A DNA stretch of 32,000 nt from Opitutales bacterium. Lineage in GTDB: Bacteria; Verrucomicrobiota; Verrucomicrobiia; Opitutales; PNEW01. The DNA lies in NCBI GenBank assembly GCA_965219535.1, contig CBDCNV010000002.1:1290001-1322000 (forward strand), in the 5' to 3' direction. The first letter of the stretch is position 1; each line of letters opens with the position of its first letter. Under the pieces are notes generated by a model. It searched no databases. It was not told where the DNA came from and worked only from the letters and a program-made list of their open reading frames with translations. A program made the position numbers and the translations under genes. Of this stretch, positions 14,428 through 32,000 are shown in pieces.

Positions 14428-14452
14428 GTCAAAAGGTCAAAAAGTCAAAAAG
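14428..14452 (+). repeat. Trailer array (GTCAAAAG class, 8-nt period, 3 units) downstream of TauE-like gene
   Basis: GTC starts at 14428, 14436 and 14444. It lies in a convergent intergenic region with no start codon nearby. Orientation is the reverse complement of the leader arrays relative to the upstream gene. Confidence 0.65.
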
Positions 14453-14509
14453 GAAAACGTGTATCCGCAACTTGTCACGCCATAGCCTCGGCGACGGCGG
14501 ATCCGCAAT

Positions 14510-15373
14510 CTAAATGACCCAGTGCCGGTAAAGTTGCTTAACGTTATCCGGTAGTTTATCGAAGACGTCTTTTCGAATCGGAATCGCGTCGTAGTTCTTG
14601 CCGCCTCTTTCGACCACCATGCGATCGTGATCGGGAGTGCCTTTCATCGTCGGTGTAAGGTTGAGCCACCACGGCGCATAGCGTACGATTAACGCGACCC
14701 GGGATTCGTCACAGATATTCGGTGCCACGGCATGCCACATACGGCTGTCATAAAGCAGTACGCTACCCTCCGGACCCAAGGCCTGGCGCTCGTCGGGATT
14801 TGGTGCGTCGAGATCAATTCCCTCCATCTCTCCTGTTGCCGGGTTGTTTGTCAGGCGATGGCTTTTGGGAAGAATAAATGTGGCTCCGTTTTCTTTCGTG
14901 AAGTGAGTCAACATCCAGATCGATGATAGGTGCATGATCATATTGCCGTAGGGCGCTTTGACATGCGTGGAGTTAGTCCCGTTATAGGGCCAGTCGGCGT
15001 GCCAATAGCCGCGGTCACCGCCGGGTTGGTTGATCACCGTGTCCGTACACGAAATCCGTGCATAGTCGCCGAAAAAATATTCTACTGTTCCGAGTATGCG
15101 TTCATCGACAAGGTAGGGCGCAAAGCACTGCGTGGCATTGATCACCTGCTTGAGCACCGCGACCCCCGGTGTGCCAATGCGATGGCCGCGTGACCGCGTT
15201 TTCGCCAGCTCTGCTTCCGCTTCTTCATTATGAGCGTGTTGCGCGGCCATGACTTCAGAACGAATGGCGTCCACCTTATCCGCTGGAATTACCCCCTCGA
15301 CGACGCAATAACCCTCTCGCTCGATTTGAGAAACAATAGCGTCCACCGGCATCTGTTTAATCGAAGTTTCCAT
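14510..15373 (-). CDS. Phytanoyl-CoA dioxygenase (PhyH) family Fe(II)/2-oxoglutarate oxygenase
   Basis: 287-aa ORF. YWHADWPY (HxD), GATFILPKSH, SRMWHAVAPN, RVALIVRY. Confidence 0.8.
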   Translation of the reverse strand: METSIKQMPVDAIVSQIEREGYCVVEGVIPADKVDAIRSEVMAAQHAHNEEAEAELAKTRSRGHRIGTPGVAVLKQVINATQCFAPYLVDERILGTVEYFFGDYARISCTDTVINQPGGDRGYWHADWPYNGTNSTHVKAPYGNMIMHLSSIWMLTHFTKENGATFILPKSHRLTNNPATGEMEGIDLDAPNPDERQALGPEGSVLLYDSRMWHAVAPNICDESRVALIVRYAPWWLNLTPTMKGTPDHDRMVVERGGKNYDAIPIRKDVFDKLPDNVKQLYRHWVI

Positions 15374-15576
15374 TACATATTAATCGGTAGAAAAATAGTA
15401 TCGGAATTTATAAGAAAAACAACGATTTACTGAAAAACATTTAAAGCCTCGATGGGTTCCACCTTATCTTTTCTTCTACTCTCATTATTTCTTTCTTGTG
15501 TCTCTCGTGCCTTTGGAAGATGTTGTCTCGCTGTTTTATAGTAAGATACTTCGGTAAACGATAACACGAAATCGAG

Positions 15577-16674
15577 ATGAAATTCAGATCATTTTTAATA
15601 GCATTAAGCGCATTATCCCTATCCATGGGATCGATTACCAGCTACGCTGATGATGAAAGTCTGGGGATGTATATGCCTGACGGTCAGATCACCTCACGGG
15701 TAGTCAGGGTTTATCTCTATAATTGGGATTTGTCCTATGAGATGAATCCCCGTTTGGTCCTGGGAAAGCTGGGTAAGGCGGATAGTGAAAATGTCAGCGA
15801 TCGACTGACGGATAATGTTCAGTACTCCGCAATCGAAGTAATACCCGACCAGCGTTGGACGGAAACGAGAGAAGGAGAATCCTTTGAGCGGCAATCGCAC
15901 GGAACGGTGATATTGTTTGATCTATCAAAACAGAGTGTTCCGTTTTATAAACCGGGACAACGTTTCCTTCCGATTCTCCTATGGAATGAAAATGTGCAAC
16001 CGGGAAGAAAAGTAGACACAAAATCCCAAATCCAGGTGATCAGCAAAGAGGATGTCTATTTACGTGGTCGAGCGGGTATACTTATTTGGACTGTTCTCGT
16101 CCTTTTGATTTTTCTGGGAATTGTTTACCTGATCACAATGCGTGCAGAAAGGGGGATGCTAGGTATACTTTGTACCGCGAATGGCCGTATCTCTGTCGGG
16201 TTGACACAAATGGCCCTTTGGACACTTGTCGTCGGCGCGATGGTCCTTGGGTTTGGTTTGATGCAGCTGACGGTGCCAGAGATTCCTCTTACCTTGATCC
16301 TATTAATCGGAATGTCCTACGCCACGAGTGCAATAAGCCATTATCAAACGTATCGCTTGCAGCGTGTAGTGGCATCAGCAAGTCAAGAGCGTGAACCCCG
16401 TTTAAGTGACCTCGTATCGATACCCACTCTTATCACAACAGATAAAGGCGACGCGAAGGAAACAGAAGACCAGTCTCTCGCGAAAGCACAATTGCTGTTT
16501 TGGACCGTTTTCACCTTAGTCATTATAGCAATGAAGACTATTGCTGAAGGTCAATTATGGGCGATCCCGGAGACCTTGGTGTTTTTAATGGGATTCAGTC
16601 AGATTGGCTATTTAGCCCGTAAAGAAATGTCATTGTGGGTCGCACGAAAAGACACCATTCCAGATACTCAATAA
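15577..16674 (+). CDS. Membrane protein of unknown function (signal peptide, ~150-aa extracytoplasmic domain, 4-5 TM segments)
   Basis: 365-aa ORF. MKFRSFLIALSALSLSMGSITSYA signal-like N-terminus. Hydrophobic segments ILIWTVLVLLIFLGIVYLI, LWTLVVGAMVLGFGLM, LTLILLIGMSYA, LLFWTVFTLVIIA, LVFLMGFSQIGYL. No family recognised. Confidence 0.7.
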   Translation: MKFRSFLIALSALSLSMGSITSYADDESLGMYMPDGQITSRVVRVYLYNWDLSYEMNPRLVLGKLGKADSENVSDRLTDNVQYSAIEVIPDQRWTETREGESFERQSHGTVILFDLSKQSVPFYKPGQRFLPILLWNENVQPGRKVDTKSQIQVISKEDVYLRGRAGILIWTVLVLLIFLGIVYLITMRAERGMLGILCTANGRISVGLTQMALWTLVVGAMVLGFGLMQLTVPEIPLTLILLIGMSYATSAISHYQTYRLQRVVASASQEREPRLSDLVSIPTLITTDKGDAKETEDQSLAKAQLLFWTVFTLVIIAMKTIAEGQLWAIPETLVFLMGFSQIGYLARKEMSLWVARKDTIPDTQ

Positions 16675-16679
16675 AACAA

Positions 16680-16738
16680 GAAAACCGGGAAGGCTGGAAA
16701 CCAGATAACCAGAAGACCGGAAAACCGGAAAACCAGAC
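16680..16738 (+). repeat. 8-nt-period array, GGAAAACC class (7 units)
   Basis: gaaaaccg ggaaggct ggaaacca gataacca gaagaccg gaaaaccg gaaaacca, starting 6 nt after stop 16674. Confidence 0.7.
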
Positions 16739-16793
16739 TAAGAGAAAGAGGATATGGAAGAAGTTTAATACCCAAATTCGCATTCAAGCATTT

Positions 16794-16827
16794 CCTTTTT
16801 GACCTTTTGACCTTTTGACTTTTTGAC
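16794..16827 (+). promoter_or_regulatory. Leader array (CTTTTGAC class, exact 8-nt period, 4 units) upstream of start 16837
   Basis: GAC ends at 16803, 16811, 16819 and 16827. 9-nt spacer ttcttattg to the ATG. Confidence 0.75.
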
Positions 16828-16836
16828 TTCTTATTG

Positions 16837-17610
16837 ATGCATGAAGGAAAACTTTTAAGCGACAAGCTGAAATCCGGCGATATCTGCCTGGGCATTTTCA
16901 ATACCTCGAGTGATCCCTGTATCACTGAGCTACTCAGTGGCTCAGGGTACGACTTTATTATTATCGATGCTGAGCACGGTGCACTTAATATCGAGACCGT
17001 ACAGGCTAATATCATGGCGACGATGGGTAGTAACACGGTTCCGCTGGTTCGCGTGCCGATCAATGATGAAGCTTATATTAAGCGTTTGCTTGACGCAGGA
17101 GTGGGTGGGATTCTTGTGCCCCAGGTTCGCAACGCTGAGGATGTTAAGCAAGCGGTTGCTGCCTGTCTTTACCCGCCGGAAGGTATTCGCGGGTTCGGAC
17201 CGCGTCGACCTGCCAACTACGAGCGTAATTATGCCGAGGTTGCCGAATCGGCTAACGATCATATTGTAGCCTGGGTCCAGATCGAAAACATGGGAGCTGT
17301 AAATGAGATCGAAGAGATCGTCCGCACTCCGCATCTTTCTGGAGTTATTATTGGTCCCAATGACCTCGCGGCATCGCTGGGGGTAATTTTTCAGAAAGAA
17401 CATCCGACGGTTCTTGAAGCCATCCAGAAAGTGAAAAGTGCCGCACACGAGGCAGGCATGCCCGTGGGAATGGCGGGGACTAAGGATCCGGAGGGTGCTA
17501 TCGGATGGATCAAGGACGGTTTTCAATTCGCGACGCTGAATAATACAAATGGCCTCCTCATGCGGGCCAGCCAGGATTTCATTGCCAGGGTGAAAGAGGG
17601 AATCGCTTAA
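16837..17610 (+). CDS. HpcH/HpaI-family class II aldolase (2-keto-3-deoxy-sugar-acid aldolase, YfaU/LRA4-like)
   Basis: ORF track starts at TTG 16834; ATG 16837 preferred. Motifs FIIIDAEHG, LVRVP, PQVRNAEDV, IENMGAV, IGPNDLA. Confidence 0.85.
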   Translation: MHEGKLLSDKLKSGDICLGIFNTSSDPCITELLSGSGYDFIIIDAEHGALNIETVQANIMATMGSNTVPLVRVPINDEAYIKRLLDAGVGGILVPQVRNAEDVKQAVAACLYPPEGIRGFGPRRPANYERNYAEVAESANDHIVAWVQIENMGAVNEIEEIVRTPHLSGVIIGPNDLAASLGVIFQKEHPTVLEAIQKVKSAAHEAGMPVGMAGTKDPEGAIGWIKDGFQFATLNNTNGLLMRASQDFIARVKEGIA

Positions 17611-17612
17611 TC

Positions 17613-17647
17613 AATTGCCGATTGCCGATATGCGATTTCAGATTGAA
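17613..17647 (+). repeat. 7-nt-period array, GATTGCS class (5 units), starting 2 nt after stop 17610
   Basis: aattgcc gattgcc gatatgc gatttca gattgaa. Confidence 0.6.
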
Positions 17648-17708
17648 CCGTGAGAGGATATCCTGATGGTTTTTTACATAATTACATTTCCTTATTTACG
17701 CAGATCCA

Positions 17709-17739
17709 TTTTGACATTCTGACCTTTTGACATTTTGAC
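17709..17739 (+). promoter_or_regulatory. Leader array (TTTTGAC/TTCTGAC, exact 8-nt period, 4 units) upstream of start 17750
   Basis: GAC ends at 17715, 17723, 17731 and 17739. 10-nt spacer tcttccttac to GTG 17750. Confidence 0.7.
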
Positions 17740-17749
17740 TCTTCCTTAC

Positions 17750-18913
17750 GTGAAGATTAAAGAAATCAGGACTGTAGATTTAAAAATACCGGTCGCTCAG
17801 CCAAAAACAAAACCGAGCCGCCCTGCCTGGAGAATGTCAGCGCCTCGTAATCTACCTCTTAAAAAGTATCCTGAATTTTCCCAGAGCGATAATGCTGTTC
17901 CCGGCATGGATGAGAACCCGGTCTGGGTCCAGGTAGTCGCCGAGAACGGCGAATGGGGACTTGGCTTTTCAGGCTTTGGCGCAGTGACCGCAGTGGTAAT
18001 CGACGGCGTCTTTGCCCCTTTGTTAAAGGGACGTGACTGCATGGCGATTGAGTTTTTAAACGATTTGATGTGGAGGTCTATTCTGCGTCTGGGTTCCGAG
18101 GGGCATGCGGCGATTGCGCAAAGTGGAGTAGACCTGGCATTGTGGGACCTCAAAGGGAAATTACTGGATCAACCCGTCTACAGCTTGCTCGGGGGACCCA
18201 GCCGGGATAAAGTGCGTCTGTATGCGACGACTGACGACCTCGATTGGGCGCAGGAGCTGGGCTTCACCGCATTCAAAGTGAGCAATCCCGCTCATTATGA
18301 CAGCGGTATTGAGGGACTCAACAAGCTTGAGGAAAAAGTAGCGCGTGCCCGAGAGACTGTGGGTGTGGATGCCGAACTGATGCTCAATCCGGTAATGGCT
18401 TACAACGTGGAATTCGCGATCCAGGTGGCTGAGCGCCTGCGGCCCTACCGACTGCGCTGGCTGGAGGAGCCACTGAAGCCAATTGATTTGCGCGGTCATA
18501 TCGAACTGAAAAAGGCTGTTCCTTGGATGCCGATTGCCACCGGTGAGGACCATCACGGGCGGCACGCGTTTCTCGAGTTAATTGAAAATCGGTGTGTGGA
18601 TGTGGTTCAACCCGACATCAACTGGTGCGGTGGGTTGTCGGAAGCGGTTAAAATTTATGCCATCACGGAAGCTGCAGGATTGCAGACGAGTCCACATAAG
18701 GCTGGCTCGACGCCTTTTGGTCAGCACTTCGCCATCGCCATGCCCGAATCATCATTGGCTGAGTTCTGGCTCGAGACTGACCCTGGAATTCCTTTGGACG
18801 AGTTAAACCCCATTCCCGGTATGGCTGTCCCCAGGGACGGCTATGTCGTGCCATCACAGGCCCCTGGATTCGGTATGGAAATTGCAGAAGACTGGATTCT
18901 ACCGAGAGACTGA
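17750..18913 (+). CDS. Enolase-superfamily (mandelate racemase/muconate-lactonizing, RhamD-like) sugar-acid dehydratase homolog
   Basis: The ORF-track TTG 17735 lies inside the repeat array. GTG 17750 gives MKIKEIRTVDL, matching paralog MKIKSIRAVNV (25862). Motifs DLALWDLKGK, RLRWLEEP, ATGEDH, QPDINWCGGLSE, PHKAG. Asn replaces the expected first Mg ligand (LMLN versus LMLD). Confidence 0.8.
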   Translation: MKIKEIRTVDLKIPVAQPKTKPSRPAWRMSAPRNLPLKKYPEFSQSDNAVPGMDENPVWVQVVAENGEWGLGFSGFGAVTAVVIDGVFAPLLKGRDCMAIEFLNDLMWRSILRLGSEGHAAIAQSGVDLALWDLKGKLLDQPVYSLLGGPSRDKVRLYATTDDLDWAQELGFTAFKVSNPAHYDSGIEGLNKLEEKVARARETVGVDAELMLNPVMAYNVEFAIQVAERLRPYRLRWLEEPLKPIDLRGHIELKKAVPWMPIATGEDHHGRHAFLELIENRCVDVVQPDINWCGGLSEAVKIYAITEAAGLQTSPHKAGSTPFGQHFAIAMPESSLAEFWLETDPGIPLDELNPIPGMAVPRDGYVVPSQAPGFGMEIAEDWILPRD

Positions 18914-18972
18914 AAATAAGCTTTATGATTTTCTGATTGCTCGAATGATAAAATCAAATTGAGAATGGAAAA

Positions 18973-19824
18973 ATGAAACGATTAGAAAACAAAGTTGCTA
19001 TTATTACGGGTGCGTCACTAGGGCTAGGTAAAGCGGCCGCCCTGCTTTTCGCTAAAGAGGGTGCTTCTGTCGTCATCTGTGATCGCGGACGAACGCCGGA
19101 GAATGCTGAAAAAGTGCTCAAGGAAGCGGAAGGTCTCAGTGGTGAAATTGCTTACAAAAAATGTGATGTCCTAATCAAGGACGATATTGTCGCCCTCGTT
19201 AAATTTACTTTGGAGCGCTTTGGAAGAATTGATGTCATGGTTAACAATGCCATCGTCGATACGAATATGGGGATGTTGGAAGAGATTGAATTGGATGATT
19301 GGGAGGACACGATTTTTTGTCATATGACCGCGCCTCTAATCTTTTGTCAGGAGGTGATGCCAACAATGATCAAGCAGGGAAGTGGGAGTATTATTAATGT
19401 GTCTTCACATATGGCGCTTGTCGGTAGCAGCAATATTTCCTCCTATGGCCCAGCCAAGGCGGGCATGATCAATTTTACCAAATCGATAGCGGTTACTTAC
19501 GGCCCCTACGGGATTCGTGCGAACTCACTTACGCCCGCCCGCATGCTTACAGAAAAAAAACATGATATGCTCAGGGGTAGTCCATCGTCAGTCAGAATAC
19601 AGAAAACTGCGTATCCCACGGGCAGTCCAGCTCAACCCGAACAGGTTGCTGATGCCATGCTCTTTTTGGCTTCCGATGAATCAGCTGCAGTTACGGGACA
19701 TAATCTGATCACCGACCGGGGCCTCACCGCTCAGTGTCCCTCTGTCCCTGTTGGCCGAGGTGAAGCGAATTTAAAAGAGGAACTGGCCGCGCAGGGATCG
19801 GAGTGGTTAAAGAGTGAGTTATGA
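18973..19824 (+). CDS. Short-chain dehydrogenase/reductase (SDR)
   Basis: 283-aa ORF. TGASLGLGKAAA (TGxxxGxG), NNAIV, S...YGPAKAG (YxxxK). The 59-nt gap from the upstream gene has no arrays, so co-transcription is likely. Confidence 0.9.
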   Translation: MKRLENKVAIITGASLGLGKAAALLFAKEGASVVICDRGRTPENAEKVLKEAEGLSGEIAYKKCDVLIKDDIVALVKFTLERFGRIDVMVNNAIVDTNMGMLEEIELDDWEDTIFCHMTAPLIFCQEVMPTMIKQGSGSIINVSSHMALVGSSNISSYGPAKAGMINFTKSIAVTYGPYGIRANSLTPARMLTEKKHDMLRGSPSSVRIQKTAYPTGSPAQPEQVADAMLFLASDESAAVTGHNLITDRGLTAQCPSVPVGRGEANLKEELAAQGSEWLKSEL

Positions 19825-19834
19825 TGTCAATGAG

Positions 19835-19874
19835 GATATGCGTGAAAGCGAAAATGTGTAAATGCGATAATGGG
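19835..19874. repeat. 8-nt-period AATGCG-class array after stop 19824
   Basis: gatatgcg tgaaagcg aaaatgtg taaatgcg ataatggg. Confidence 0.55.
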
Positions 19875-19924
19875 GATTGATAGTTGATTAATCCTAACGG
19901 TTATATCTTTCTCTCTTGCAACTG

Positions 19925-19966
19925 CTGAACCCTGAACCCTGAACCCTGAACCCCGAACCCTGAACT
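19925..19966 (+). promoter_or_regulatory. Heptamer tandem array (CTGAACC)x6 ending 3 nt before ATG 19970
   Basis: ctgaacc x4, ccgaacc, ctgaact, then atc ATG. Confidence 0.75.
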
Positions 19967-19969
19967 ATC

Positions 19970-21109: not shown

Positions 21110-21110
21110 C

Positions 21111-21166
21111 GATTGCAGAATGCGGATTGAGGAATATCGATTATCGATCGTCGATTGCAGATTGAT
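21111..21166 (+). repeat. 7-nt-period array, GATTGCR class (8 units), starting 1 nt after stop 21109
   Basis: gattgca gaatgcg gattgag gaatatc gattatc gatcgtc gattgca gattgat. Confidence 0.7.
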
Positions 21167-21225
21167 CCCTATGGATACCCTCTCATTCATCCAGCCTTCC
21201 ATACTACCAATGTTTCAGCTATCAT

Positions 21226-21281
21226 CTGAACCCTGAACCCTGAACCCTGAACCCTGAACCCTGAACCCTGAACCCTGAACC
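21226..21281 (+). promoter_or_regulatory. Perfect heptamer tandem array (CTGAACC)x8, 34 nt upstream of ATG 21316
   Basis: 56 nt of uninterrupted ctgaacc units. Confidence 0.8.
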
Positions 21282-21315
21282 CCGCCTGTCCTGAGCTTAG
21301 CCGAAGGAAATACTC

Positions 21316-22386: not shown

Positions 22387-22387
22387 T
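22360..22387 (+). repeat. GATTGCR-class array (4 units) overlapping the 3' end and stop codon of 21316-22386
   Basis: gatttcg gaatgcg gattgcg gattgat. The TGA stop (22384-22386) lies inside the last unit. Confidence 0.65.
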
Positions 22388-22446
22388 ACCGGGCAAATTT
22401 ATCCTGGCTGTTTCCATATTCACACTTACTCGCATTTATCATTAAG

Positions 22447-22468
22447 CCTTCGACCTTCGACTTTTGAC
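22447..22468 (+). promoter_or_regulatory. Leader-type array (CTTCGAC CTTCGAC TTTTGAC), 50 nt upstream of ATG 22519
   Basis: GAC ends at 22454, 22461 and 22468 (7-nt period). Confidence 0.5.
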
Positions 22469-22518
22469 ATTCAGCTACAACCTGCCTATGATTAATGTTA
22501 AATCAACCTGGGTAAATT

Positions 22519-23430: not shown

Positions 23431-23445
23431 TCAGCGCCCATCTCG

Positions 23446-23474
23446 CTTTCGACCTTAGACCTTCGACTTTCGAC
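23446..23474 (-). repeat. Trailer array (GTCGAAAG class in gene orientation, 7-nt period, 4 units) ending 2 nt from stop codon 23477-23479
   Basis: + strand ctttcgac cttagac cttcgac tttcgac. GAC ends at 23453, 23460, 23467 and 23474. Confidence 0.65.
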
Positions 23475-23476
23475 TC

Positions 23477-24481: not shown

Positions 24482-24491
24482 AGGGTGATTA

Positions 24492-24524
24492 GTCAAAAGG
24501 TCAAAAGGTCAAAAAGTCAAAAAG
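24492..24524 (-). promoter_or_regulatory. Leader array (CTTTTGAC class, 8-nt period, 4 units) upstream of start 24481
   Basis: GTC starts at 24492, 24500, 24508 and 24516. 10-nt spacer taatcaccct to the ATG. Confidence 0.75.
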
Positions 24525-24572
24525 GATATGTGTAAATGTGTACATGCGTGTATGTGAGGATGCAGAAATCAT
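24525..24572. repeat. 8-nt-period ATGYG-class array (6 units)
   Basis: gatatgtg taaatgtg tacatgcg tgtatgtg aggatgca gaaatcat. Homologous unit-by-unit to 25905-25952 and 7649-7704. Confidence 0.6.
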
Positions 24573-24590
24573 TTGAATTAACTTTTATTG

Positions 24591-24625
24591 TGCATCCTGA
24601 ATCTTGCATCCTGCATCCTGCATAA
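24591..24625. repeat. 7-nt-period array, TGCATCC class (5 units)
   Basis: tgcatcc tgaatct tgcatcc tgcatcc tgcataa. Confidence 0.65.
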
Positions 24626-24665
24626 CCGCGGCCGCTGGATGACCGCAAATTAATAATCGATACAC

Positions 24666-25862
24666 TTATTCAGCTTGATAATTATAGGGCGACAGCTGTT
24701 CTTCGGTAATTTGCACACCGAAGCCAGGTCCGTCAGAAGGTATCATTTTGCCATCTTTGGGCGTTGCAATCCCGGGTAGCTGTTCTGCTTTTTGGGGCGA
24801 TTCACCGGGTGGTGTCGCGACAAAGCATTCCGCCCATGGGATGGCGGGCATGGCATAGCAGGCGTGCTGGCCATAAGGTGTACTTCCACCGCAGTGGGGG
24901 ATAACCGAGATTCCCGCCGCTTCAGCGATCGCACAGATCTTTGTGATCGCCGTAAGTCCTCCCACCCAGTGAATATCCGGCTGGAATATGTCCACCAGGT
25001 GGCGGCTGGCAGCGTGTTGGAAAGGCACAGAAGTGTACCAATGCTCACCGGTACTCAGCGTCTGCCAGGGAACACGCTGACGTAGTTGGGCATGGGCATC
25101 GAAATCTTCAGAGCGCAGTGTTTCTTCCATCCACTTAAGTTTGTATGGCCGCAACGCTTCTGCCAGGCGCACGGCGTATTCTACGTCGAAGGCCATCCAG
25201 CAGTCTAACATTAACTCTACATCATCACCCACCAGTTCACGATTCCTCGCTACAAAATCCACGTTCTTCTTGAGACCGTCCAAACCATCGGCGGGGCCGT
25301 AGGGGCAGGGTAGTTTGGTAGCCTTGAAACCGAGTTCCATGTACCAATCGGTATCCCCGCCGGTGGAGTAGCAGAACAATTCATCTCGCGCCGGGCCGCC
25401 CAGCAATTCGTAAACCGGTCGATCCATTAATTTTCCCTTCAGATCCCACAGGGCCAGATCAATAGCGCTCACGGCGTAGGAGTGGAGCCCCGTCGCACCA
25501 TAAGGCGCGCCCATGCGCACCATCATATCATAGCATTTTTCAGTTGCGGTGCAGTTTTCACCCACAAGACGCGGCCCGAGGTAGTCATCGATTATTGCGG
25601 CTACGGGGCGACCGTGATTGGCGACGGAAAACCCCCAGGTTCCATCTTCGGCTTCGACCACACAGCCGAAATTCTTCCAAGTCGGATACCATGAAGGGCG
25701 GAACGCCGCGTAACGAGGGTAGCGTGTCACGGGGTTGGCGACGGGACCGCTTTCAATCCATGAAGGACGACGCGCAGTCTTGTACTTGACGCTCGAGGAG
25801 CTCCCTTGGTTACTGGTTTCCGGGAAACTCACATTGACGGCGCGGATGGATTTAATTTTCAT
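24666..25862 (-). CDS. Enolase-superfamily L-rhamnonate-dehydratase-like (RhamD subgroup) sugar-acid dehydratase
   Basis: 398-aa ORF. IDLALWDLKGK, ELMLDCWMAFDV, YKLKWMEE, STGEHW, QPDIHWVGGLT and IPHCGGS parallel E. coli RhmD (LMLDCWM, LKWIEE, SGEHH, QPDVGWCGGLT, VPHGSS) from memory. Confidence 0.85.
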   Translation of the reverse strand: MKIKSIRAVNVSFPETSNQGSSSSVKYKTARRPSWIESGPVANPVTRYPRYAAFRPSWYPTWKNFGCVVEAEDGTWGFSVANHGRPVAAIIDDYLGPRLVGENCTATEKCYDMMVRMGAPYGATGLHSYAVSAIDLALWDLKGKLMDRPVYELLGGPARDELFCYSTGGDTDWYMELGFKATKLPCPYGPADGLDGLKKNVDFVARNRELVGDDVELMLDCWMAFDVEYAVRLAEALRPYKLKWMEETLRSEDFDAHAQLRQRVPWQTLSTGEHWYTSVPFQHAASRHLVDIFQPDIHWVGGLTAITKICAIAEAAGISVIPHCGGSTPYGQHACYAMPAIPWAECFVATPPGESPQKAEQLPGIATPKDGKMIPSDGPGFGVQITEEQLSPYNYQAE

Positions 25863-25871
25863 GGGTAGATA

Positions 25872-25903
25872 GTCAAAAAGTCAAAAGGTCAAAAAGTCAA
25901 AAG
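25872..25903 (-). promoter_or_regulatory. Leader array (CTTTTGAC class, 8-nt period, 4 units) upstream of start 25862
   Basis: GTC starts at 25872, 25880, 25888 and 25896. 9-nt spacer tatctaccc to the ATG. Confidence 0.75.
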
Positions 25904-25904
25904 G

Positions 25905-25952
25905 GTTATGTGTAAATGAGTGCATGTGTGAATGCGAGGAGGCGAAATCGCA
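25905..25952. repeat. 8-nt-period ATGYG-class array (6 units)
   Basis: gttatgtg taaatgag tgcatgtg tgaatgcg aggaggcg aaatcgca. Confidence 0.6.
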
Positions 25953-26130
25953 TTGAGAGTATAACCCGATATTCTTAAATTCGTTAGGGTTTTGCTGCAT
26001 CCCGCATCGCGTATCAAACTGCCTTGGAAGATGTCGTTCTGGAACTCGGAACTGGCTTTCTGGATATCTGGTCTTTTGGCTGTCCGGCCTACCGCTACCG
26101 AACCTCGCCATGGTGAGGTGACATCCACCA

Positions 26131-27096: not shown

Positions 27097-27224
27097 CTCC
27101 CGTTTTCTTTTAGCGGTATTTCGCCAGGCATAAAGACAAAAAATTGTGCTCTAAGCGAATGGGTGCAATCGATTGTTACTTATTTTATCTCGCAACATCA
27201 ATTCGGCTTATTACACTGTTACTC

Positions 27225-28586
27225 ATGCAAAGAACAATAAAGCCCTCCTTGTCTTATCGAACTTATTCAACATTAGTCTTAGTGTGTGCGTTCTCACTCT
27301 GCCACGCCGATGATTGGCCGCGTTGGCTGGGACCCGAGGGAGATTCGATTTGGCGTGAATCGGGTATCCTGACGGAGATTCCTGCGGGCGGATTGAAAAA
27401 TAATTGGTCGCATCCTGTTGGCTTGGGTTACGCTGGTCCAGCGGTAGCAAATGGTAAGGTGTATGTCATGGATTATGTCAAAACATCTGGCGAAATCAGG
27501 AATCAAGCCAGTTGGAAAGACGAATTGCGCGGTAAAGAGCGCATCCTCTGTCTATCGGTAGAAACGGGAGAGCTCATCTGGAAACATGAATATGATCGGG
27601 CCTATTTTTTATCTTATCCCGCGGGACCACGCTGCACGCCAACTGTGGCGGATGGCAAAGTGTACACCTTGGGAACAGAGGGCGATTTACTATGCCTCGA
27701 TGCTGAAACCGGTGAGAAATACTGGTCGAAATCCTTTAACGAATCTTACGGCACAACAACACCGCTTTGGGGTTACGCGGCGCACCCGCTGGTGGTTGGC
27801 AATCAACTCTTCTGCATTGTTGGCGGTGAAGGGAGCGTCGTCGTTGCGTTTAATAAGGATACAGGTAAAGAGCAATGGCGCGCATTGTCCGCAGCCGATA
27901 GGGGATATTGTCCACCCTCTATGATCAAATCTGGAGGAAAACAACAATTGCTGATCTGGCACGGTGAATCGTTAAACAGCCTTAATCCTGTAAGTGGTGA
28001 GGTCTACTGGACTAACGCCATTAAACCCAGTTACGGCCTGACCGTGGCAGCACCGAGGCTTCAGGGTTCACTGCTCTTTGTTACCGGTATGAGCAGCACC
28101 AGCGCGCTGCTTAAACTGAACGATGAAAAACCTGGATTCGAGACCCTGTGGAAAGGGACAAGTACCAGTTCCGTTCACTGCAATAACAGTACACCAGTCA
28201 TGACTGAAACGATGATCTTTGGCTGTGATGTCGAATCGAGCGCGCTTATAGGTGTGCGTGTTGCTGACGGTGAACGCACGTGGCAAACGACATCCCCTAC
28301 GGTTGGCGATCTAAAAAAAGCGCGTCACGGTACCGCGTTTATTGTGCGGCATCTCAACTCAGACCGTTACTTCCTCTTCAGCGAGACAGGAGATTTGATT
28401 TTGGCTGAGATGACTGCGAGTGAGTATCGCGAAATCGGTAGACAACGGGTATTAGAACCAACCAATAACACGGGAGGTCGATCAGTTGTCTGGAGCCATC
28501 CCGCATTCGCATCGAAAAGTATGTTCGCCCGCAACGACAAAGAAATTGTGCGTGTAGACCTGGCAGCGAAGGCATATGATAAATAA
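27225..28586 (+). CDS. Secreted PQQ-like/BamB-like beta-propeller repeat protein
   Basis: ORF track starts at 27144. ATG 27225 gives the signal peptide MQRTIKPSLSYRTYSTLVLVCAFSLCHA followed by DDWPRWLGPEGDS, typical of this PVC-abundant family. Repeated GKVY/GDL.C.D..TGE..W blades. Confidence 0.75.
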   Translation: MQRTIKPSLSYRTYSTLVLVCAFSLCHADDWPRWLGPEGDSIWRESGILTEIPAGGLKNNWSHPVGLGYAGPAVANGKVYVMDYVKTSGEIRNQASWKDELRGKERILCLSVETGELIWKHEYDRAYFLSYPAGPRCTPTVADGKVYTLGTEGDLLCLDAETGEKYWSKSFNESYGTTTPLWGYAAHPLVVGNQLFCIVGGEGSVVVAFNKDTGKEQWRALSAADRGYCPPSMIKSGGKQQLLIWHGESLNSLNPVSGEVYWTNAIKPSYGLTVAAPRLQGSLLFVTGMSSTSALLKLNDEKPGFETLWKGTSTSSVHCNNSTPVMTETMIFGCDVESSALIGVRVADGERTWQTTSPTVGDLKKARHGTAFIVRHLNSDRYFLFSETGDLILAEMTASEYREIGRQRVLEPTNNTGGRSVVWSHPAFASKSMFARNDKEIVRVDLAAKAYDK

Positions 28587-28596
28587 GCTTATATAT

Positions 28597-28632
28597 GTCG
28601 AAAGTCGAAAGTCGAAGGTCGAAAGTCAAAAG
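28597..28632 (+). repeat. Trailer array (GTCGAAA x4 + GTCAAAAG, 7-nt period) 10 nt after stop 28586
   Basis: GTC starts at 28597, 28604, 28611, 28618 and 28625. Confidence 0.7.
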
Positions 28633-28695
28633 AGGGGGGTAAGAAGAATCCGCTGGGATTCTCATGTATCTTGCTTACTGAAACCTGTATCCACT

Positions 28696-28769
28696 CTTGT
28701 CATTGCGAAAGAGGCATGGCCGACTGCGCTCGGTTGCCACGGCTGTTAATCAGCCTCGCGATGACAAAT
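28696..28769. repeat. REP/MITE-like palindromic element, copy C (short, 74 bp)
   Basis: cttgtcattgcgaaag (28696-28711) ... cctcgcgatgacaaat (28754-28769). The interior ggcatggccgactgcgctcggttgccacggctg is shared with copy D. Confidence 0.7.
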
Positions 28770-28815
28770 ATAATAATTTTAAAATCTCGTCCCTCCAGAA
28801 GATTATCTGGTTTGT

Positions 28816-28842
28816 CCTCTTGACTTTATGACTATCTGACAC
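28816..28842 (+). promoter_or_regulatory. Degenerate leader-type array (CTTGAC TTTATGAC TATCTGAC) upstream of ATG 28856
   Basis: Three GAC-terminated units. The last GAC ends 15 nt before the ATG. Confidence 0.4.
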
Positions 28843-28855
28843 TGGCTATTTATTT

Positions 28856-30535
28856 ATGAGCAAACTGGGAGCATACACGCCACGTGGAGATCGTCGCATC
28901 ATTTATGTCAGCGACCCTTCCAGCATCATTCGGAGTTACTTACCGGAAGTTCCTACCGAAGATGATTTGAGACACTGGGTCGACGAACTGGCAGAAGCCA
29001 AAGTCGATACTTTCATCCAGGAAGCTTACTCACAGGGTTGGACTGTCTATTGGCGTTGTGAAAAATTCGATTATGACCAGCGCCCGCAACACCGTTGCTT
29101 TCTTCCCCTGCTGGATGCAGGTGTTCAACCGCTGGAGGTAATTCTCGACCAAAGTCATAAACGCGGAATGGAGTTTATGGCCGGGTTTCGCATGAACCTT
29201 AACCACGTTCATGTTTCTACACAACAAGGTGTGGGGGGAGGGGCCAGTTATCTCACTCAGGATTCTAAGTGGATGATAAAAAAGTATCCACCGGGCGATG
29301 ATTTTGAAATAAATTCAATGCTTGATTTCACTTTTCAAGAAGTGAGGGACTATATATGTGAAGTAGCGAGAGAAATTGTACACAGTTTTGATCTGGATGG
29401 TTTGGAATTATGTTTCCGGGAATCTGTCTATTTCCCCCATGGCAAAGGTCGTGAGAGTCAATCGATAATGACGGATTTAATACGTCAGATTCATGAAATT
29501 CTGGAAACCGAGAGCCAGAATAAAAAAAAGGAACTTAAGCTTGGAGCTAGAGTATTCCAGACATTGAAAGAATGTCATGACATAGGATTGGATATTCCCA
29601 CCTGGATCGAAAAGGGGTACCTCGATTATGTATCACCCAGTGATGTCATGTATTCGGATATTAATGCGGCCTATGAAGAGTTCGCTGAACTGACCCGCGA
29701 TTCTAACTGTTACCTCTACCCAGCCATCCTTCCCTGGTTAAGTTGTCGATCAGAACGCCGATTAAACCGCATGCCTATAAATATGGATCAGCAGCGAGCC
29801 ATTGCTCAGAACTATTATGGCGCTGGCGCGGACGGTATCTCGATTTATAATCATTTTGTATCTAATGATTGGGCACCCTTTTATCCGATGCAGCTTTTCG
29901 ATATGGACGAATTAAAAGATCCCGTTTGCGTTAGGGAGGGAAGAAAACATTATGTGTATGAACCTATTTGGAGTGGGTGTGATGTCTTTATTCAGGATGG
30001 CGCCCCCTCCGGTGCAATTAAGGCAGATAAAATATTGCTCGAACGATCGGATAATATTGTCAGTGGCAATTACCGTTTTCGACTCTGTGAAGATCTAAAC
30101 AAAGTGCGAAAAGCTTATCTAATATTTCGTGCCGGAAACATGACAATGGACGACCAAATAAAAGTGCTTATCAACAATGAAGAGATCCCTCACCGTTTGA
30201 TCAGACAGACGCAAAATGAAAAGCGTATAAAAGCCGCACCGATTGAAACGGCAACCGATAGATCGATACGCATGTATAGGGAAGGAAAAATAAAAGAAGC
30301 TGTAAAAAGCGAAACCACGAATAAGGATACTTTTAAACATGACCCACTATCCACGGAGAAAGGCCATCCCATTATTCAAGGAGAGATTGATCGTCCTTTT
30401 ACTACTTGCTGGTTTGAACTGACAACCCCGCCCGCAATCTATGGTGATAACTGGTTGGACGTGACTTTAATCGAGGGTGATCCCCAGGCAACCGAGAGTA
30501 TCATCATTGATGAACTCGAAGTGATTGTGGTTTAG
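28856..30535 (+). CDS. Hypothetical cytoplasmic protein; possibly a glycoside-hydrolase-like (beta/alpha)8 barrel + C-terminal beta-sandwich
   Basis: 559-aa ORF with no signal peptide. I recognise no family with confidence. The alternating pattern in the N-terminal 350 aa and the beta-rich C-terminus are only suggestive. Confidence 0.55.
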   Translation: MSKLGAYTPRGDRRIIYVSDPSSIIRSYLPEVPTEDDLRHWVDELAEAKVDTFIQEAYSQGWTVYWRCEKFDYDQRPQHRCFLPLLDAGVQPLEVILDQSHKRGMEFMAGFRMNLNHVHVSTQQGVGGGASYLTQDSKWMIKKYPPGDDFEINSMLDFTFQEVRDYICEVAREIVHSFDLDGLELCFRESVYFPHGKGRESQSIMTDLIRQIHEILETESQNKKKELKLGARVFQTLKECHDIGLDIPTWIEKGYLDYVSPSDVMYSDINAAYEEFAELTRDSNCYLYPAILPWLSCRSERRLNRMPINMDQQRAIAQNYYGAGADGISIYNHFVSNDWAPFYPMQLFDMDELKDPVCVREGRKHYVYEPIWSGCDVFIQDGAPSGAIKADKILLERSDNIVSGNYRFRLCEDLNKVRKAYLIFRAGNMTMDDQIKVLINNEEIPHRLIRQTQNEKRIKAAPIETATDRSIRMYREGKIKEAVKSETTNKDTFKHDPLSTEKGHPIIQGEIDRPFTTCWFELTTPPAIYGDNWLDVTLIEGDPQATESIIIDELEVIVV

Positions 30536-30617
30536 AGAAAAGTATATTTACTCCTAACGACATGGATATTATCACGTAGATCTGGCATCGAATGCATGTA
30601 GGCAGTGAGATTTTTAT

Positions 30618-30646
30618 GTCGAAAGTCGAAGGTCGAAAGTCAAAAG
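30618..30646 (+). repeat. Trailer array (GTCGAAA GTCGAAG GTCGAAA GTCAAAAG)
   Basis: GTC starts at 30618, 30625, 30632 and 30639. Homologous to 28597-28632. Confidence 0.7.
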
Positions 30647-30679
30647 AGGGAGTGTAAGTAAAAACCGATAGGATTTTCT

Positions 30680-30707
30680 TGCATCTTGTATTCTGAATCC
30701 TGCATCC
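30680..30707. repeat. 7-nt-period TGCATCC-class array (4 units) abutting REP copy D
   Basis: tgcatct tgtattc tgaatcc tgcatcc. Confidence 0.5.
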
Positions 30708-30710
30708 TCT

Positions 30711-30821
30711 CTTGTCATTGCGAAGGAGGAGTAGCCGACTGCGGCAATCCAGGGGCTGACGATATGCGTACGAAATTCCTCTGGATCGCCACGGCTGTAA
30801 ATCAGCCTCGCGATGACAAAT
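30711..30821. repeat. REP/MITE-like palindromic element, copy D (111 bp)
   Basis: cttgtcattgcgaagg (30711-30726) ... cctcgcgatgacaaat (30806-30821). It has an inner inverted pair ggcaatccagggg / cctctggatcgcc. Confidence 0.7.
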
Positions 30822-30858
30822 ATAATAATACAACAATACGTCCAAACGAAACGCCAAA

Positions 30859-32000
30859 TTGGTAAATCCTAAAACATACGAAATAGCCGTCCTCAAGGGA
30901 GACGGTATCGGTCTCGAAGTCGTCGATGAAGCCTTGCGAGTACTGGAGGCGGTTGCAGTAGTGGAAGAGATACGATTTAACTTTAATGATTATCCCTCGG
31001 GTGCTGACTGCTACCTGGCACAGGGCACGCCGTTGCCGGATGATACCCTGGTCGCCTGTCGGCAAGCGGATGCGGTGCTGCTCGGCGCAATGGGAAACCC
31101 GGAGATCCGTTGGCCCGACGGTACGGAGATGCGACCCCAGGTGGATCTGCGCTTCAAGCTCGATCTCTATGCCGGGGTGCGTCCAATCTATCTATACGCT
31201 TCACACCATACACCGCTCAAAGGCTACGAAGCAGGGGATATCGATTTTGTCCTCCTCCGTGAAAATGTTGAAGGGTTGTTTGCGTCGATGGACTCCGGCA
31301 TCGAGCTGCGGGGTGAGGTGGCGACTGATACGATGGTTATTACGAAGGATGGCACGGAACGCATTGTCGCCTATGCATTCCAACTTGCACGAGAGCGACA
31401 GTTGGCAAGGGGATCAAGTGGTATAACTGAATTTGTCCCCAAAGTTACCTGTGTCGACAAGGCCAACATTTTTCGATCGATGGCATTCTTTCGTCGCGTT
31501 TATGATGAAGTGGCTGAGAACTATAATGAAGTTGGCCGGGAGTACGCCTACGTCGACGCGATGGCCCAATATCTGGTTCAGCGGCCCGAAGAATATGACG
31601 TCATGGTCATGGAGAATATGTACGGTGATATACTTTCGGATCTTGCCGCAGGTATTGTCGGCGGACTGGGGATGACGCCATCGGGAGATATAGGTAAGGA
31701 TGCGGCGGTCTTTCAGCCGTCACATGGAACCGCACCCGACATTGCCGGTAAGGGTATCGCTAACCCCGTTGCCACGATTCTCTCAGCGGGTATGATGATG
31801 AAATGGCTGGGCAGTTGCTTTAATGACGAAGCGACAACGCGTGCCAGCGAATGCATCGAGCAAGCAGTTAAAAGCGTGTTGGCTGATCCGACTAATGGGA
31901 CACCGGATCTTGGTGGCGATATGACCACCTCACAATTCGGAACCAAAATCGCAGAAGCGATTTTTGAGTCAAAAAGTCAAAAGGTCAAAAAGTCAAAATG
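30859..32000 (+). CDS. Isocitrate/isopropylmalate dehydrogenase family enzyme (tartrate/D-malate dehydrogenase-like); 3' end not reached in window
   Basis: Not in the ORF track because there is no stop before the window end. TTG 30859 is the first start after an in-frame TAA. Translation ...YEIAVLKGDGIGLEVV..., LLRENVEGLF, MENMYGDILSDLAAGIVGGLGM, SHGTAPDIAGKGIANP. The last 11 codons (ESKSQKVKKSK) are encoded by a GTCAAAAG array. Confidence 0.85.
   Translation, partial: MVNPKTYEIAVLKGDGIGLEVVDEALRVLEAVAVVEEIRFNFNDYPSGADCYLAQGTPLPDDTLVACRQADAVLLGAMGNPEIRWPDGTEMRPQVDLRFKLDLYAGVRPIYLYASHHTPLKGYEAGDIDFVLLRENVEGLFASMDSGIELRGEVATDTMVITKDGTERIVAYAFQLARERQLARGSSGITEFVPKVTCVDKANIFRSMAFFRRVYDEVAENYNEVGREYAYVDAMAQYLVQRPEEYDVMVMENMYGDILSDLAAGIVGGLGMTPSGDIGKDAAVFQPSHGTAPDIAGKGIANPVATILSAGMMMKWLGSCFNDEATTRASECIEQAVKSVLADPTNGTPDLGGDMTTSQFGTKIAEAIFESKSQKVKKSK
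31968..32000 (+). repeat. Trailer-orientation array (GTCAAAAR, 8-nt period, at least 4 units) overlapping the 3' end of 30859-32000
   Basis: GTC starts at 31968, 31976, 31984 and 31992. The array continues to the window edge. Confidence 0.7.

Follow-up and report, generated by a model that had tools for sequence, protein, structure and literature searches.

Tandem YTTTYGAC arrays point their GAC end toward open reading frame edges in a marine Opitutales bacterium and its relatives

The intergenic regions (IGRs) of the uncultured marine Opitutales bacterium (Verrucomicrobiota) studied here are crowded with tandem arrays of 7-8-nt units. One class of them, built from the unit YTTTYGAC and hereafter called GAC-class arrays, follows a single rule: the GAC end points toward the nearest edge of an open reading frame (ORF), be it the start or the stop codon. 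We analyzed a 32,000-nt stretch of contig CBDCNV010000002.1 (positions 1,290,001 to 1,322,000; hereafter the window) together with 66 related loci, some 0.58 Mb in all. In this pooled material, 126 of the 132 scorable arrays had their GAC end toward the nearest ORF edge and six had it away (p = 2.5e-30), with a median gap of 8 nt on the GAC side versus 153 nt on the other side. The original prediction, made from the window alone, had described YTTTYGAC leaders upstream of starts and their reverse complements downstream of stops, with genes bracketed by inverted blocks. Both are one orientation rule, GAC end toward the ORF, and the bracketed, foldback-like look is the outcome of two independent edges, each facing outward. 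The census beyond the window, far from equal in the two orientations, confirmed that the polarity rule is real and general across the window's relatives.

The polarity rule in the window and its relatives

The related loci were found with an exact array 24-mer, GTCAAAAGGTCAAAAAGTCAAAAG. It matched 30 stretches in the GTDB species-representative genomes, 24 of them in the complete metagenome-assembled genome (MAG) chromosome of Opitutales bacterium OY829953.1 (4.49 Mb), two in a second Opitutales MAG and four as single matches in unrelated taxa. In metagenomes it matched 40 stretches, mostly on JGI-named contigs, and the viral contigs searched with it gave 0 matches, for which a phage origin of the arrays was rejected. 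The census took in the window, 26 Opitutales genome loci and 40 metagenome loci; the genome loci total 240 kb, including the four from unrelated taxa, which were set aside. The window shows synteny with OY829953.1 at about 92% identity (loci L029 and L007) and with two Ga0315339 contigs (L049 and L069) at 88-93%. Genes were called with our own codon-usage log-odds ORF caller, in agreement with Pfam matches, and we defined a strict array as at least three TT[TC]GAC cores at 7-8-nt spacing. The loci were chosen by a perfect 24-mer. Orthologous loci enter the census more than once, and the effective sample is below 132, though it is still large.

A three-unit 21-nt pattern (TTGACNTTTTGACNTTTTGAC, up to one mismatch) had 15 matches in the window versus 0.00 in 100 shuffles. 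The window and the genome loci held 87 strict arrays, 78 of them scorable, with 75 pointing toward the nearest ORF edge and three away (p = 5e-19), and the independent set of metagenome loci gave 51 toward and three away (p = 3e-12). Among the pooled arrays, 84 were start-facing, with a median gap of 9 nt, and 42 were stop-facing, with the gene on the other strand and a median gap of 7 nt; 11 of these 42 touch or overlap the stop codon. The rule was valid in divergent, convergent and codirectional IGRs. Using a looser detector, we obtained 102 arrays with a polarity of 85 to 4, and only 5 of the 102 lay inside ORFs, though 82% of the DNA is coding. In a positional histogram, forward cores were concentrated within 40 nt of starts and of stops, and reverse cores were almost absent up to 60 nt from ORF edges. 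Single isolated units gave no peak at a fixed distance from starts. Altogether, we counted 16 arrays in the window, around one per 2 kb, and 160 in the loci.

Regarding the window itself, all the GAC-class arrays of the original prediction were found by Tandem Repeats Finder (34 rows of tandem 7-8-nt arrays in 32 kb) and by direct reading (Table 1). The 11 start-side cases are present with YTTTYGAC on the coding strand, four of them next to an ORF start that we corrected. The five stop-side cases all lie at 3' ends and read GTCRAAAR, with some amendments: the gap at 14428 is 20 nt, that at 30618 is 82 nt, and the array at 31968 is read in frame. Besides, since the IGRs at 14428 and 23446 are convergent, their description as downstream of a stop is right for the nearer gene and wrong for the other one.

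Anatomy of the array

GAC-class arrays are copies of one short, polar, sequence-specific cis-element of fixed size at IGR edges. A copy usually consists of four head-to-tail YTTTYGAC units, about 32 nt long, and its consensus alternates TTTTTGAC and CTTTTGAC. We found three units in 46 arrays, four in 93, five in 11 and at least six in 5. Start-side and stop-side arrays are alike in size (3.98 vs 3.81 units) and in unit mix, with CTTTTGAC making up 42-48% and TTTTTGAC 32-35%. The TTYGAC core is highly specific, variation is confined to the first position of the unit, and variants of 7 nt occur as well as those of 8 nt. The conserved portion comprises the array and about 3 nt on its 5' side. 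A 'TA' straight after the last GAC carries 1.4 bits at starts and 0.2 bits at stops, and nothing else is conserved. We considered this TA as the target-site duplication of an IS630/mariner-type miniature inverted-repeat transposable element (MITE) and discarded the idea, as the TA is conserved at starts only. A guard of stop codons in three frames was also rejected: the 8-nt unit gives TGA in all frames, and the 7-nt TTTCGAC is free of stops in both orientations.

At the junction between array and ORF, the start or stop codon is often enclosed in a short perfect palindrome, as in TATGACCC-ATG-GGGTCATA, TAGTGAATCCATGGATTCACTA and GAAAACGC-TAC-GCGTTTTC. Perfect palindromes of at least 7 bp, many with the start or stop codon at their center, were present at 17 of 74 array edges versus 7 of 258 control edges (odds ratio (OR) 10.7, p = 1.6e-7). 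Their outer arm repeats the first or last codons in reverse complement, and in two cases the orthologue without the array is also without the outer arm. Some junction palindromes form repeated families, with GGAAGGYGGAGTTCGG..CCGAACTCC at the ends of paralogous genes.

Conservation and turnover in relatives

The start-side copies are under constraint. When all loci were compared at edges 72-98% identical, an array of at least two units was present at 93 of 108 related start edges (86%) and at 32 of 60 related stop edges (53%), a difference whose p value of 6e-6 is pseudo-replicated. All relatives that cover the arrays at 5989, 7615 and 24492 carry them unchanged, within IGRs that otherwise vary in length and content: the first matches L049 at 32 of 32 positions, the second is kept in L029 and L049, and the third is 100% conserved in L007 and L069, with a surrounding IGR (24497-24665) that varies between 90, 169 and 245 nt. 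Likewise, the array at 9013 is identical in L029, and that at 25871 is identical in L007 and reduced to a single TAGTCAAT in L069. At the position of the 22447 array, the orthologues in L007 and L069 have two units versus three in the window. Orthologous leaders overall range from one to four units and keep the ORF-proximal junction.

On the stop side, the arrays at 14428, 23446 and 28597 are specific to the window. The first is not in L069, which has an ATGCG-type array instead; in the window, the gap between the TauE stop and the array is a hairpin, AATTCGCATTTTTGCGAATT (14408-14427). The second, present in neither L007 nor L069, lies between the AKR stop and an older terminator-like hairpin, and in L069 this hairpin and its U-rich tract adjoin the AKR stop directly. 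The third belongs to a 269-nt IGR whose place is taken in L007 and L069 by a conserved IGR of 54 nt. Where arrays were gained, each came in as a small insertion of its own, right at the ORF edge and outside the older elements of the IGR. In general, arrays are gained or lost between relatives with their flanks replaced or rearranged, and the divergence of 8-15% is too far to show clean empty sites. The IGR after gene 10767..12356, for instance, has GAC arrays at both ends in OY829953.1 and a hairpin of TTAGG arrays in the window and L069.

Two further observations concern the distribution of the element. In a low-GC lineage (NPIE01 contigs, 38-40% GC), inverted GAC arrays of up to 11 units surround a short core (..GGGTCCCTGAC..), at positions 95-179 of L033 and 9428-9552 of L059; the element is therefore not confined to the window's genus. 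In addition, a human-gut contig (L055, 7116-7153) and L038 (4763-4824) share one locus with (CTTTTGAC)x5 and x8, respectively, about 186 nt upstream of a gene. This looks like a copy-number polymorphism of the same octamer in an unrelated phylum (compare the Segatella copri match, L026).

Intergenic regions with two arrays

To account for the bracketing, the original prediction had proposed either foldback-type elements inserted between genes or read-through RNA that folds into long intergenic hairpins. RNA hairpins and foldback elements exist as special cases, and they are not supported as general causes of the polarity rule. The two ends of an IGR are independent. The array-bearing IGRs comprised 45 with a single array and 18 with two, their ends being weakly associated (OR 2.6, p = 0.02). 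In codirectional IGRs we found arrays at both ends in 10, at the stop only in 8, at the start only in 23 and at neither in 47 (OR 2.55, p = 0.10). The start and stop arrays of one gene showed no association (OR 1.9, p = 0.16), which led us to reject both 5'-3' panhandles and gene cassettes bounded by inverted arrays. Both-ended cases made up 4 of 12 array-bearing divergent IGRs, whose arms belong to different transcripts, versus 14 of 51 codirectional and convergent ones (p = 0.73). Finally, in the 17 IGRs with an inverted strict pair, arm complementarity was 26.0 within the same IGR versus 26.5 between different IGRs (mean local score, p = 0.67). The arms of one IGR being no more complementary than others, there is neither hairpin covariation nor recent mirror copying, and mirror copying between IGR arms, which predicts an excess of similarity, was rejected.

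The two regions put forward as imperfect palindromes gave different results upon RNA folding: 28587-28855 folds with the arrays at 28597 and 28818 paired as its outer stem (z = -4.6; 0 of 200 shuffles as stable), whereas 8894-9045 is no more stable than its shuffles (z = -0.9). The hairpin idea stands for some IGRs that fold into long structures, and is not supported as a general cause, given the lack of arm covariation and the likeness of divergent IGRs. Foldback elements are not supported as a general cause either, with no target-site duplication and mostly single arrays, and survive in the duplicated composite blocks. The 28597 array is the outer end of such a block, which runs to about 28790 as array, TGCATCC-like stretch and MITE. 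The block at 28587-28790 recurs at 30608-30830 with a piece of the neighboring gene, which points to block duplication and not to precise transposition. The piece is a relic of some 55 nt of the 3' end of the PQQ gene (about 30560-30617), which lies after the GHL10 gene and directly precedes the 30618 array, and it is closer to the relative's version (..CTGGCATCGAATGCAT..) than to the window's own copy.

Sequence features at array-bearing edges

The gap between array and start peaks sharply at 9 nt, and 65 of the 84 start-facing arrays lie within 15 nt of the start, which fits a function linked to the start codon rather than a promoter. A start-side array spans roughly -10 to -41. Shine-Dalgarno-like 4-mers at -18 to -4 were present in 2 of 45 array genes versus 31 of 129 genes without arrays, with a chance estimate of about 0.19; by this count there is no canonical ribosome-binding site between array and start, and the lineage hardly uses Shine-Dalgarno sequences. 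The leader from -45 to -10 is nearly structure-free when it carries an array, with an ensemble energy of -0.75 versus -3.58 kcal/mol (p = 1e-12), and the start region of array genes tends to have more structure (-3.98 vs -2.24, p = 0.055). A bias of C over G was found even at edges without GAC arrays: when the 50 nt outside these ORFs are read toward the ORF, they contain 25.0% C vs 18.7% G at stops (p = 1e-11), and starts are biased likewise (p = 8e-4). The genes led by arrays are diverse and include ABC transport, PhyH dioxygenases, a sigma-54 activator, an EVE-domain protein, epimerases and pyruvate kinase, so they do not make up one regulon.

We also looked for conventional signals. Taking TTGAC as a -35 element, the spacers to the conserved TA are 7, 15 or 23 bp, because the period is 8 bp and the TA comes right after the last GAC; a promoter needs 16-18 bp, and this reading was rejected. 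A scan for consensus promoters gave no excess (21 found vs 22.3 expected), and neither did a scan for consensus terminators (14 found vs 17.9 expected). The arrays do not qualify as intrinsic terminators either, given that the sense strand after stops reads the A-rich GUCAAAAG; the TTAGG-class arrays described below fit that role better. No Rfam family was found in the window.

Possible functions of the arrays

Our tentative preference is for a reading in which the arrays would provide a single-stranded, pyrimidine-rich landing platform on RNA that enters the ORF; it is drawn from sequence features, and we hold it as a working possibility that is still rather in doubt. The active form would be the transcript of a polymerase that runs into the ORF, (CUUUUGAC)n, which is pyrimidine-rich, has more C than G and is predicted to be free of structure. 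Regarding the start side, we infer that the arrays act in the 5' untranslated region (UTR) as a platform, at about -10 to -41, on which the 30S subunit with S1, or another OB-fold RNA-binding protein, would land or stand by. Such a platform would set translation initiation, often beside a start codon held in a small hairpin. MacGregor proposed this kind of role for the TAACTGA repeats (PMC4679880), and it has been suggested for Nostoc heptamers as well (bioRxiv 10.1101/2022.06.06.494920). On the stop side, the sense mRNA would carry only the inert A-rich complement, and it is a transcript entering the gene from its 3' side that would expose the same platform, this time with no start codon behind it. 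A platform of this kind might favor Rho-type termination, and the stop-side copy could then guard against antisense transcription, which is the weakest step of the proposal and a speculation. Ribosome standby sites, the binding of S1 to AU-rich leaders, and C-rich, G-poor, unstructured rut sites are all established.

Several points weigh against the RNA platform. That the arrays are transcribed, and from which promoters, is an assumption. A generic unstructured platform has no need for a near-identical, specific sequence at hundreds of sites, which argues for a sequence-specific binder, equally possibly a DNA-binding protein. With about one YC dinucleotide per 8-16 nt and 25% C, the arrays would be mediocre rut sites. 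Stop-side copies are as tight as start-side ones (median 7 nt, 11 of 42 touching), a tightness that an antisense guard does not require, and their 53% retention, below that of starts yet far from neutral, is not accounted for. The symmetry about ORF edges is most economically explained at the DNA level and fits a binder of duplex DNA at least as well.

Alternatively, the arrays may be operator-like sites in double-stranded DNA, where one dimer per 7-8-bp unit would polymerize cooperatively and the bound protein would act as a polar block or boundary where ORFs begin and end. The symmetry of the rule relates to ORF edges and not to the direction of transcripts, the TTYGAC core is highly specific and only the first position of the unit varies, the copy number is fixed at 3-5, size and unit mix are the same at starts and stops, and the units come in variants of both 7 and 8 nt; MetJ, with its tandem 8-bp metboxes, and the omega repressor, with its 7-bp heptads, offer precedents. 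We nevertheless regard this as rather unlikely. It is not obvious what the 9-nt spacing to starts would mean to a protein on DNA, a block right before the ATG would stop sense transcription too, the genes are unrelated (pyruvate kinase among them) and form no regulon, no candidate protein was identified, and mixed periods of 7 and 8 nt shift the helical phasing in a way that cooperative binders usually do not tolerate.

To a similarly low degree we would credit a reading without any host function, in which the arrays belong to selfish mosaic repeats of the IGRs, akin to bacterial interspersed mosaic elements (BIMEs), MITEs or foldback elements. They would spread through recombination or transposition, and their polarity would reflect the terminal inverted repeats of cassettes that take up entire IGRs. 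IGRs combine a limited set of modules, frequently arranged as mirror images; relatives about 92% identical have exchanged entire IGRs; a composite block occurs twice in the window, once with a piece of a neighboring gene; the two ends of an IGR are weakly associated; and the distribution is narrow, with two Opitutales species representatives plus marine metagenome contigs. However, target-site duplications are missing, as is any conserved terminus past the array, single arrays outnumber pairs by 45 to 18, and two arms of the same IGR resemble each other no more than they resemble arms of other IGRs. Arrays are perfect at orthologous or paralogous edges that are 72-98% identical, as neutral MITE copies would not be, and they were gained as small, separate insertions at the ORF edge, outside older elements. 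On both sides of divergent IGRs, an adjacency of 0-15 nt would leave no room for ancestral promoters. Besides, no transposase is associated with the arrays in the roughly 0.58 Mb of loci covered, and viral contigs gave no match.

More unlikely still, though worth stating, is a genome-wide punctuation code of ORF edges. A dedicated sequence-specific factor, protein or RNA, would read the polar arrays and gate entry into the ORF: sense transcription coupled to ribosomes would go through, and uncoupled or antisense transcription would be halted. Bacteria without Shine-Dalgarno-led initiation would then insulate their genes in a way not described before. The mechanism that places new arrays exactly at start and stop codons would also make the short inverted copies of ORF ends.

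Pairing of inverted arrays within one read-through transcript, as intergenic hairpins or 5'-3' panhandles with a role in termination, RNase III processing or mRNA stability, seems improbable as the general explanation, despite the fold at 28587-28855, the 10 codirectional and 4 convergent IGRs that have both arms, and a near-perfect hairpin of about 30 bp between convergent genes (L018, 1666-1750). The arms do not covary, both-ended IGRs are equally common when divergent, and neither the stop and start arrays of codirectional IGRs nor those of one gene are significantly associated; region 8894-9045 folds like its shuffles; and a hairpin with an A-rich array after stops makes no intrinsic terminator; pairing would also bury the downstream leader.

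Lastly, contingency repeats whose slippage switches the adjacent gene (phase variation) are very improbable: unit number does vary among some orthologues (1-4 units; 3, 2 and 2 at 22447) and between L055 and L038 (5 vs 8 units), but it is usually the same across genomes 8-15% apart, with a sharp peak at 4, and the arrays occupy hundreds of loci, housekeeping genes included, and lie outside coding frames and promoter spacers.

Comparison with known repeats

The closest likeness that we found is to the TAACTGA heptamers of marine Beggiatoaceae, some Cyanobacteria and Bacteroidetes (MacGregor 2015, PMC4679880). These repeats adjoin start codons without a ribosome-binding site, and binding of S1, Csp or CsrA has been proposed for them (PMC4679880). 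Both systems consist of tandem direct units of 7-8 nt, are mostly in forward orientation within a few nt of the start, and precede genes without a functional pattern; the TAACTGA sets have 2-6 copies, number hundreds per genome and are nearly all intergenic, with a minority of 12 of 170 that points at stop codons (PMC4679880). The arrays described here differ in unit (YTTTYGAC), in phylum (Verrucomicrobiota) and in their gap to the start, about 9 nt versus about 1 nt. Moreover, one third of the YTTTYGAC copies (42 of 126) face stops, equally tightly, and they form the outermost part of mosaic IGRs, which are often mirror-symmetric and contain several other array classes.

Heptamers upstream of two genes of Nostoc PCC 7120, (TTTTGAA)3 at recF and (GACYAAT)8 at recO, are described in the part of a preprint available to us (bioRxiv 10.1101/2022.06.06.494920), where deletion constructs suggest a regulatory effect and a binding partner is postulated. 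That part describes no polarity rule for stop codons, and the present arrays differ from those heptamers in their fixed number of 3-5 units. As far as that account goes, the cyanobacterial short tandemly repeated repetitive (STRR) sequences and heptamers share with ours contiguous units near the starts or promoters of many unrelated genes, as well as a T-rich composition similar to TTTTGAC.

Repetitive extragenic palindromes (REPs), BIMEs and REPINs are abundant extragenic elements of Proteobacteria that occur as inverted pairs and in mosaic combinations. REP units are palindromic hairpins, placed mostly after 3' ends and mobilized as doublets by RAYT transposases. GAC-class arrays, in contrast, are tandem and non-palindromic, have two thirds of their copies at starts, show independent arms and leave the leader nearly unstructured (-0.75 kcal/mol). 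For REPs and BIMEs, roles in termination and mRNA stability have been proposed (PMC3733652). With foldback transposons and MITEs whose terminal inverted repeats are made of short tandem subrepeats, our arrays share that some IGRs begin and end in inverted arrays and that MITE-like elements lie inside; unlike them, they have no target-site duplication, are mostly single-ended and are conserved at orthologous sites. Metboxes of MetJ (tandem, 8 bp) and the heptads of the pSM19035 omega repressor are operators of 2-10 unspaced, non-palindromic units, placed in direct or inverted orientation, each binding one dimer. The unspaced, non-palindromic units of 7-8 bp are common to these operators and the GAC-class arrays, but the former serve a few promoters and the latter occupy hundreds of sites fixed to ORF edges, stop codons included.

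In the literature on the motif itself and on intergenic repeats of Verrucomicrobia we found nothing specific, and no report of the same element at stop codons under the same edge-pointing rule (126 to 6). Start-proximal tandem heptamers have already been described in other phyla, while the Verrucomicrobiota case and the stop-codon population appear new. This clade offers a denser and cleaner case, with around one array per 2 kb in the window, near-absolute polarity, fixed size, strong conservation at starts and an unexpected second population at stop codons. Should the start-side platforms be real, they would show how initiation is organized in a Shine-Dalgarno-poor phylum and supply a leader that can be carried over into the engineering of such bacteria; an edge symmetry rooted in a DNA-level function or in the gating of transcription would amount to a new kind of gene insulation.

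Arrays and genes of the window

The window holds a sugar-acid catabolism cluster, with genes for Na:solute symporters, TauD, PhyH, HpcH aldolase, two MR/MLE enolases, SDR, two UxuA-like proteins, AKR, 2-hydroxyacid dehydrogenase, a PQQ-propeller protein, a GHL10 protein and an Iso_dh-family protein. The GAC-class arrays are listed in Table 1 along with the other repeats. Four ORF starts were corrected to positions 9-10 nt past the array (ATG 9051, ATG 16837, GTG 17750 and ATG 24481). In these cases, the longest-ORF rule picks as start a TTG inside the last array unit (TTGAC), at 8976, 16834, 17735 and 24496. Automatic annotation of such genomes would misplace many starts by 10-75 nt, and gene finders should allow for the arrays. 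At the other end of the window, the Iso_dh-family ORF reads in frame through its array (..EAIFESKSQKVKKSK), with no stop before the window ends.

Table 1. Tandem arrays, MITE-like elements and junction palindromes, with positions in the window unless a locus is named.
Feature	Position	Strand	Units or sequence	Relation to genes
Start-facing GAC array	5989..6021	-	4 units (CTTTTGAC/TTTTTGAC)	9 nt from ATG of DUF2961 gene 4378..5979
Start-facing GAC array	7615..7647	-	4 units	9 nt from TTG start of Na:solute symporter 6049..7605
Start-facing GAC array	7955..7985	+	degenerate (CCTTTGAC..GTTCGAC)	upstream of TauD 8015..8893
Start-facing GAC array	9013..9040	+	CTTTTGAC ATTAGAC CTTCGAC TTTTGAC	10 nt from corrected ATG 9051
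Start-facing GAC array	10728..10755	+	degenerate	11 nt upstream of ATG 10767
Stop-facing GAC array	14428..14452	-	3 units, + strand GTCAAAAG	20 nt after TauE stop; convergent IGR
Start-facing GAC array	16795..16829	+	4 units	9 nt upstream of ATG 16837 (HpcH aldolase)
Start-facing GAC array	17707..17739	+	4 units, one degenerate	10 nt upstream of GTG 17750 (MR/MLE enolase)
GAC array	22447..22472	+	7-nt units (CCTTCGAC CTTCGAC TTTTGAC)	~47-50 nt upstream of PhyH 22519
Stop-facing GAC array	23446..23475	+	7-nt units	2 nt from stop of AKR (- strand); convergent IGR
Start-facing GAC array	24492..24522	-	4 units	10 nt upstream of AKR ATG 24481
Start-facing GAC array	25871..25904	-	4 units	9 nt upstream of enolase ATG (gene 24666..25862)
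Stop-facing GAC array	28597..28632	-	5 units GTCGAAA (+ strand reading)	10 nt after PQQ-like stop
Start-facing GAC array	28818..28842	+	degenerate (CTCTTGAC TTTATGAC TATCTGAC)	13-15 nt upstream of ATG 28856
GAC array, second copy of the 28597 composite block	30618..30646	-		82 nt after 30535 stop
GAC array	31967..31998	-	4 units	inside 3' end of Iso_dh-family (isocitrate/isopropylmalate-dehydrogenase-like) ORF
WAATGCG/GATTGCR-class array	8896..8945	+	8-nt period	directly after TauD stop
WAATGCG/GATTGCR-class array	17613			after stop
WAATGCG/GATTGCR-class array	19835			after stop
WAATGCG/GATTGCR-class array	21110			after stop
WAATGCG/GATTGCR-class array	22353			after stop
CGCAT-class array (reverse complement)	7649-7700			inward of 7615 array
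CGCAT-class array (reverse complement)	7905-7950			inward of 7955 array
CGCAT-class array (reverse complement)	8971-9012			inward of 9013 array
CGCAT-class array (reverse complement)	24523			inward of leader array
CGCAT-class array (reverse complement)	25905			inward of leader array
CTGAACC leader array	19925..19965	+	(CTGAACC)x6	ends 4 nt before ATG 19970 (UxuA-like)
CTGAACC leader array	21226-21282		(CTGAACC)x8	upstream of UxuA-like paralogue 21316
MITE-like element	1713-1954		TTGTCATTGCGA ... TCGCRATGACAA, variable core	
MITE-like element	7727-7887		TTGTCATTGCGA ... TCGCRATGACAA, variable core	
MITE-like element	28697-28767		TTGTCATTGCGA ... TCGCRATGACAA, variable core	
MITE-like element	30712-30819		TTGTCATTGCGA ... 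TCGCRATGACAA, variable core	
Junction palindrome	14408-14427			
Junction palindrome	L005 2369-2387			
Junction palindrome	L018 4030-4051			
Junction palindrome	L002 4390-4406			

Other array classes and intergenic mosaics

The CGCAT/AATGCG class, with a period of 8 nt, was expected to behave like the GAC class, and it did: the same polarity was present in 29 of 33 cases, just inward of the GAC arrays. The modules of an IGR are often in mirror order, namely GAC array, ATGCG array, core or MITE, CGCAT array and GAC array. The two CTGAACC leader arrays of the window have just 1-2 units at the same positions in L069, from which it follows that other array classes can take the leader position and expand quickly.

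TTAGG-class heptamers followed stops in the sense orientation in 12 of 18 cases. Arrays of TGTTAGG, TTTTAGG or TGTTAAG, often as perfect hairpins, lie at 1980-2034, 10659-10688 and 12378-12444 of the window and at the 3' end of AKR in L069, typically right behind a small GC hairpin past the stop (e.g. CGCGTTCGCGCG TTTTAAGTG..). They look like the real intrinsic terminators of this genome. The TTAGG-class unit also matches the integron core-site consensus GTTRRRY, probably by coincidence. A purine-rich class, AAACCAGA/AACCGGA, with an 8-nt period, stands directly behind stops at 16698-16737 of the window, at 6431-6510 of L007 and in the L069 IGR that corresponds to window 21110-21315.

Larger differences between relatives were also seen. 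Between the orthologues of genes 8015..8893 and 9051..10640, OY829953.1 carries an insertion of about 1.4 kb (L029, 5290-6500) with a long ORF, presumably an insertion sequence transposase, where the window and L049 have an IGR of about 80 nt. Compared with window 15577-18886, L069 (8910-9142) is without three genes, which encode a protein of unknown function, the HpcH aldolase and an MR/MLE enolase. There, the 5' UTR of the first gene runs directly into the final 9 codons of this enolase, which makes the three-gene gap a deletion; no arrays lie at the breakpoints, and an array-mediated deletion was rejected. Finally, the MITE-like copy at 7727 is present in the window and L029 and absent from L049, and L007 carries one that the window lacks, in the IGR at 27097-27300.

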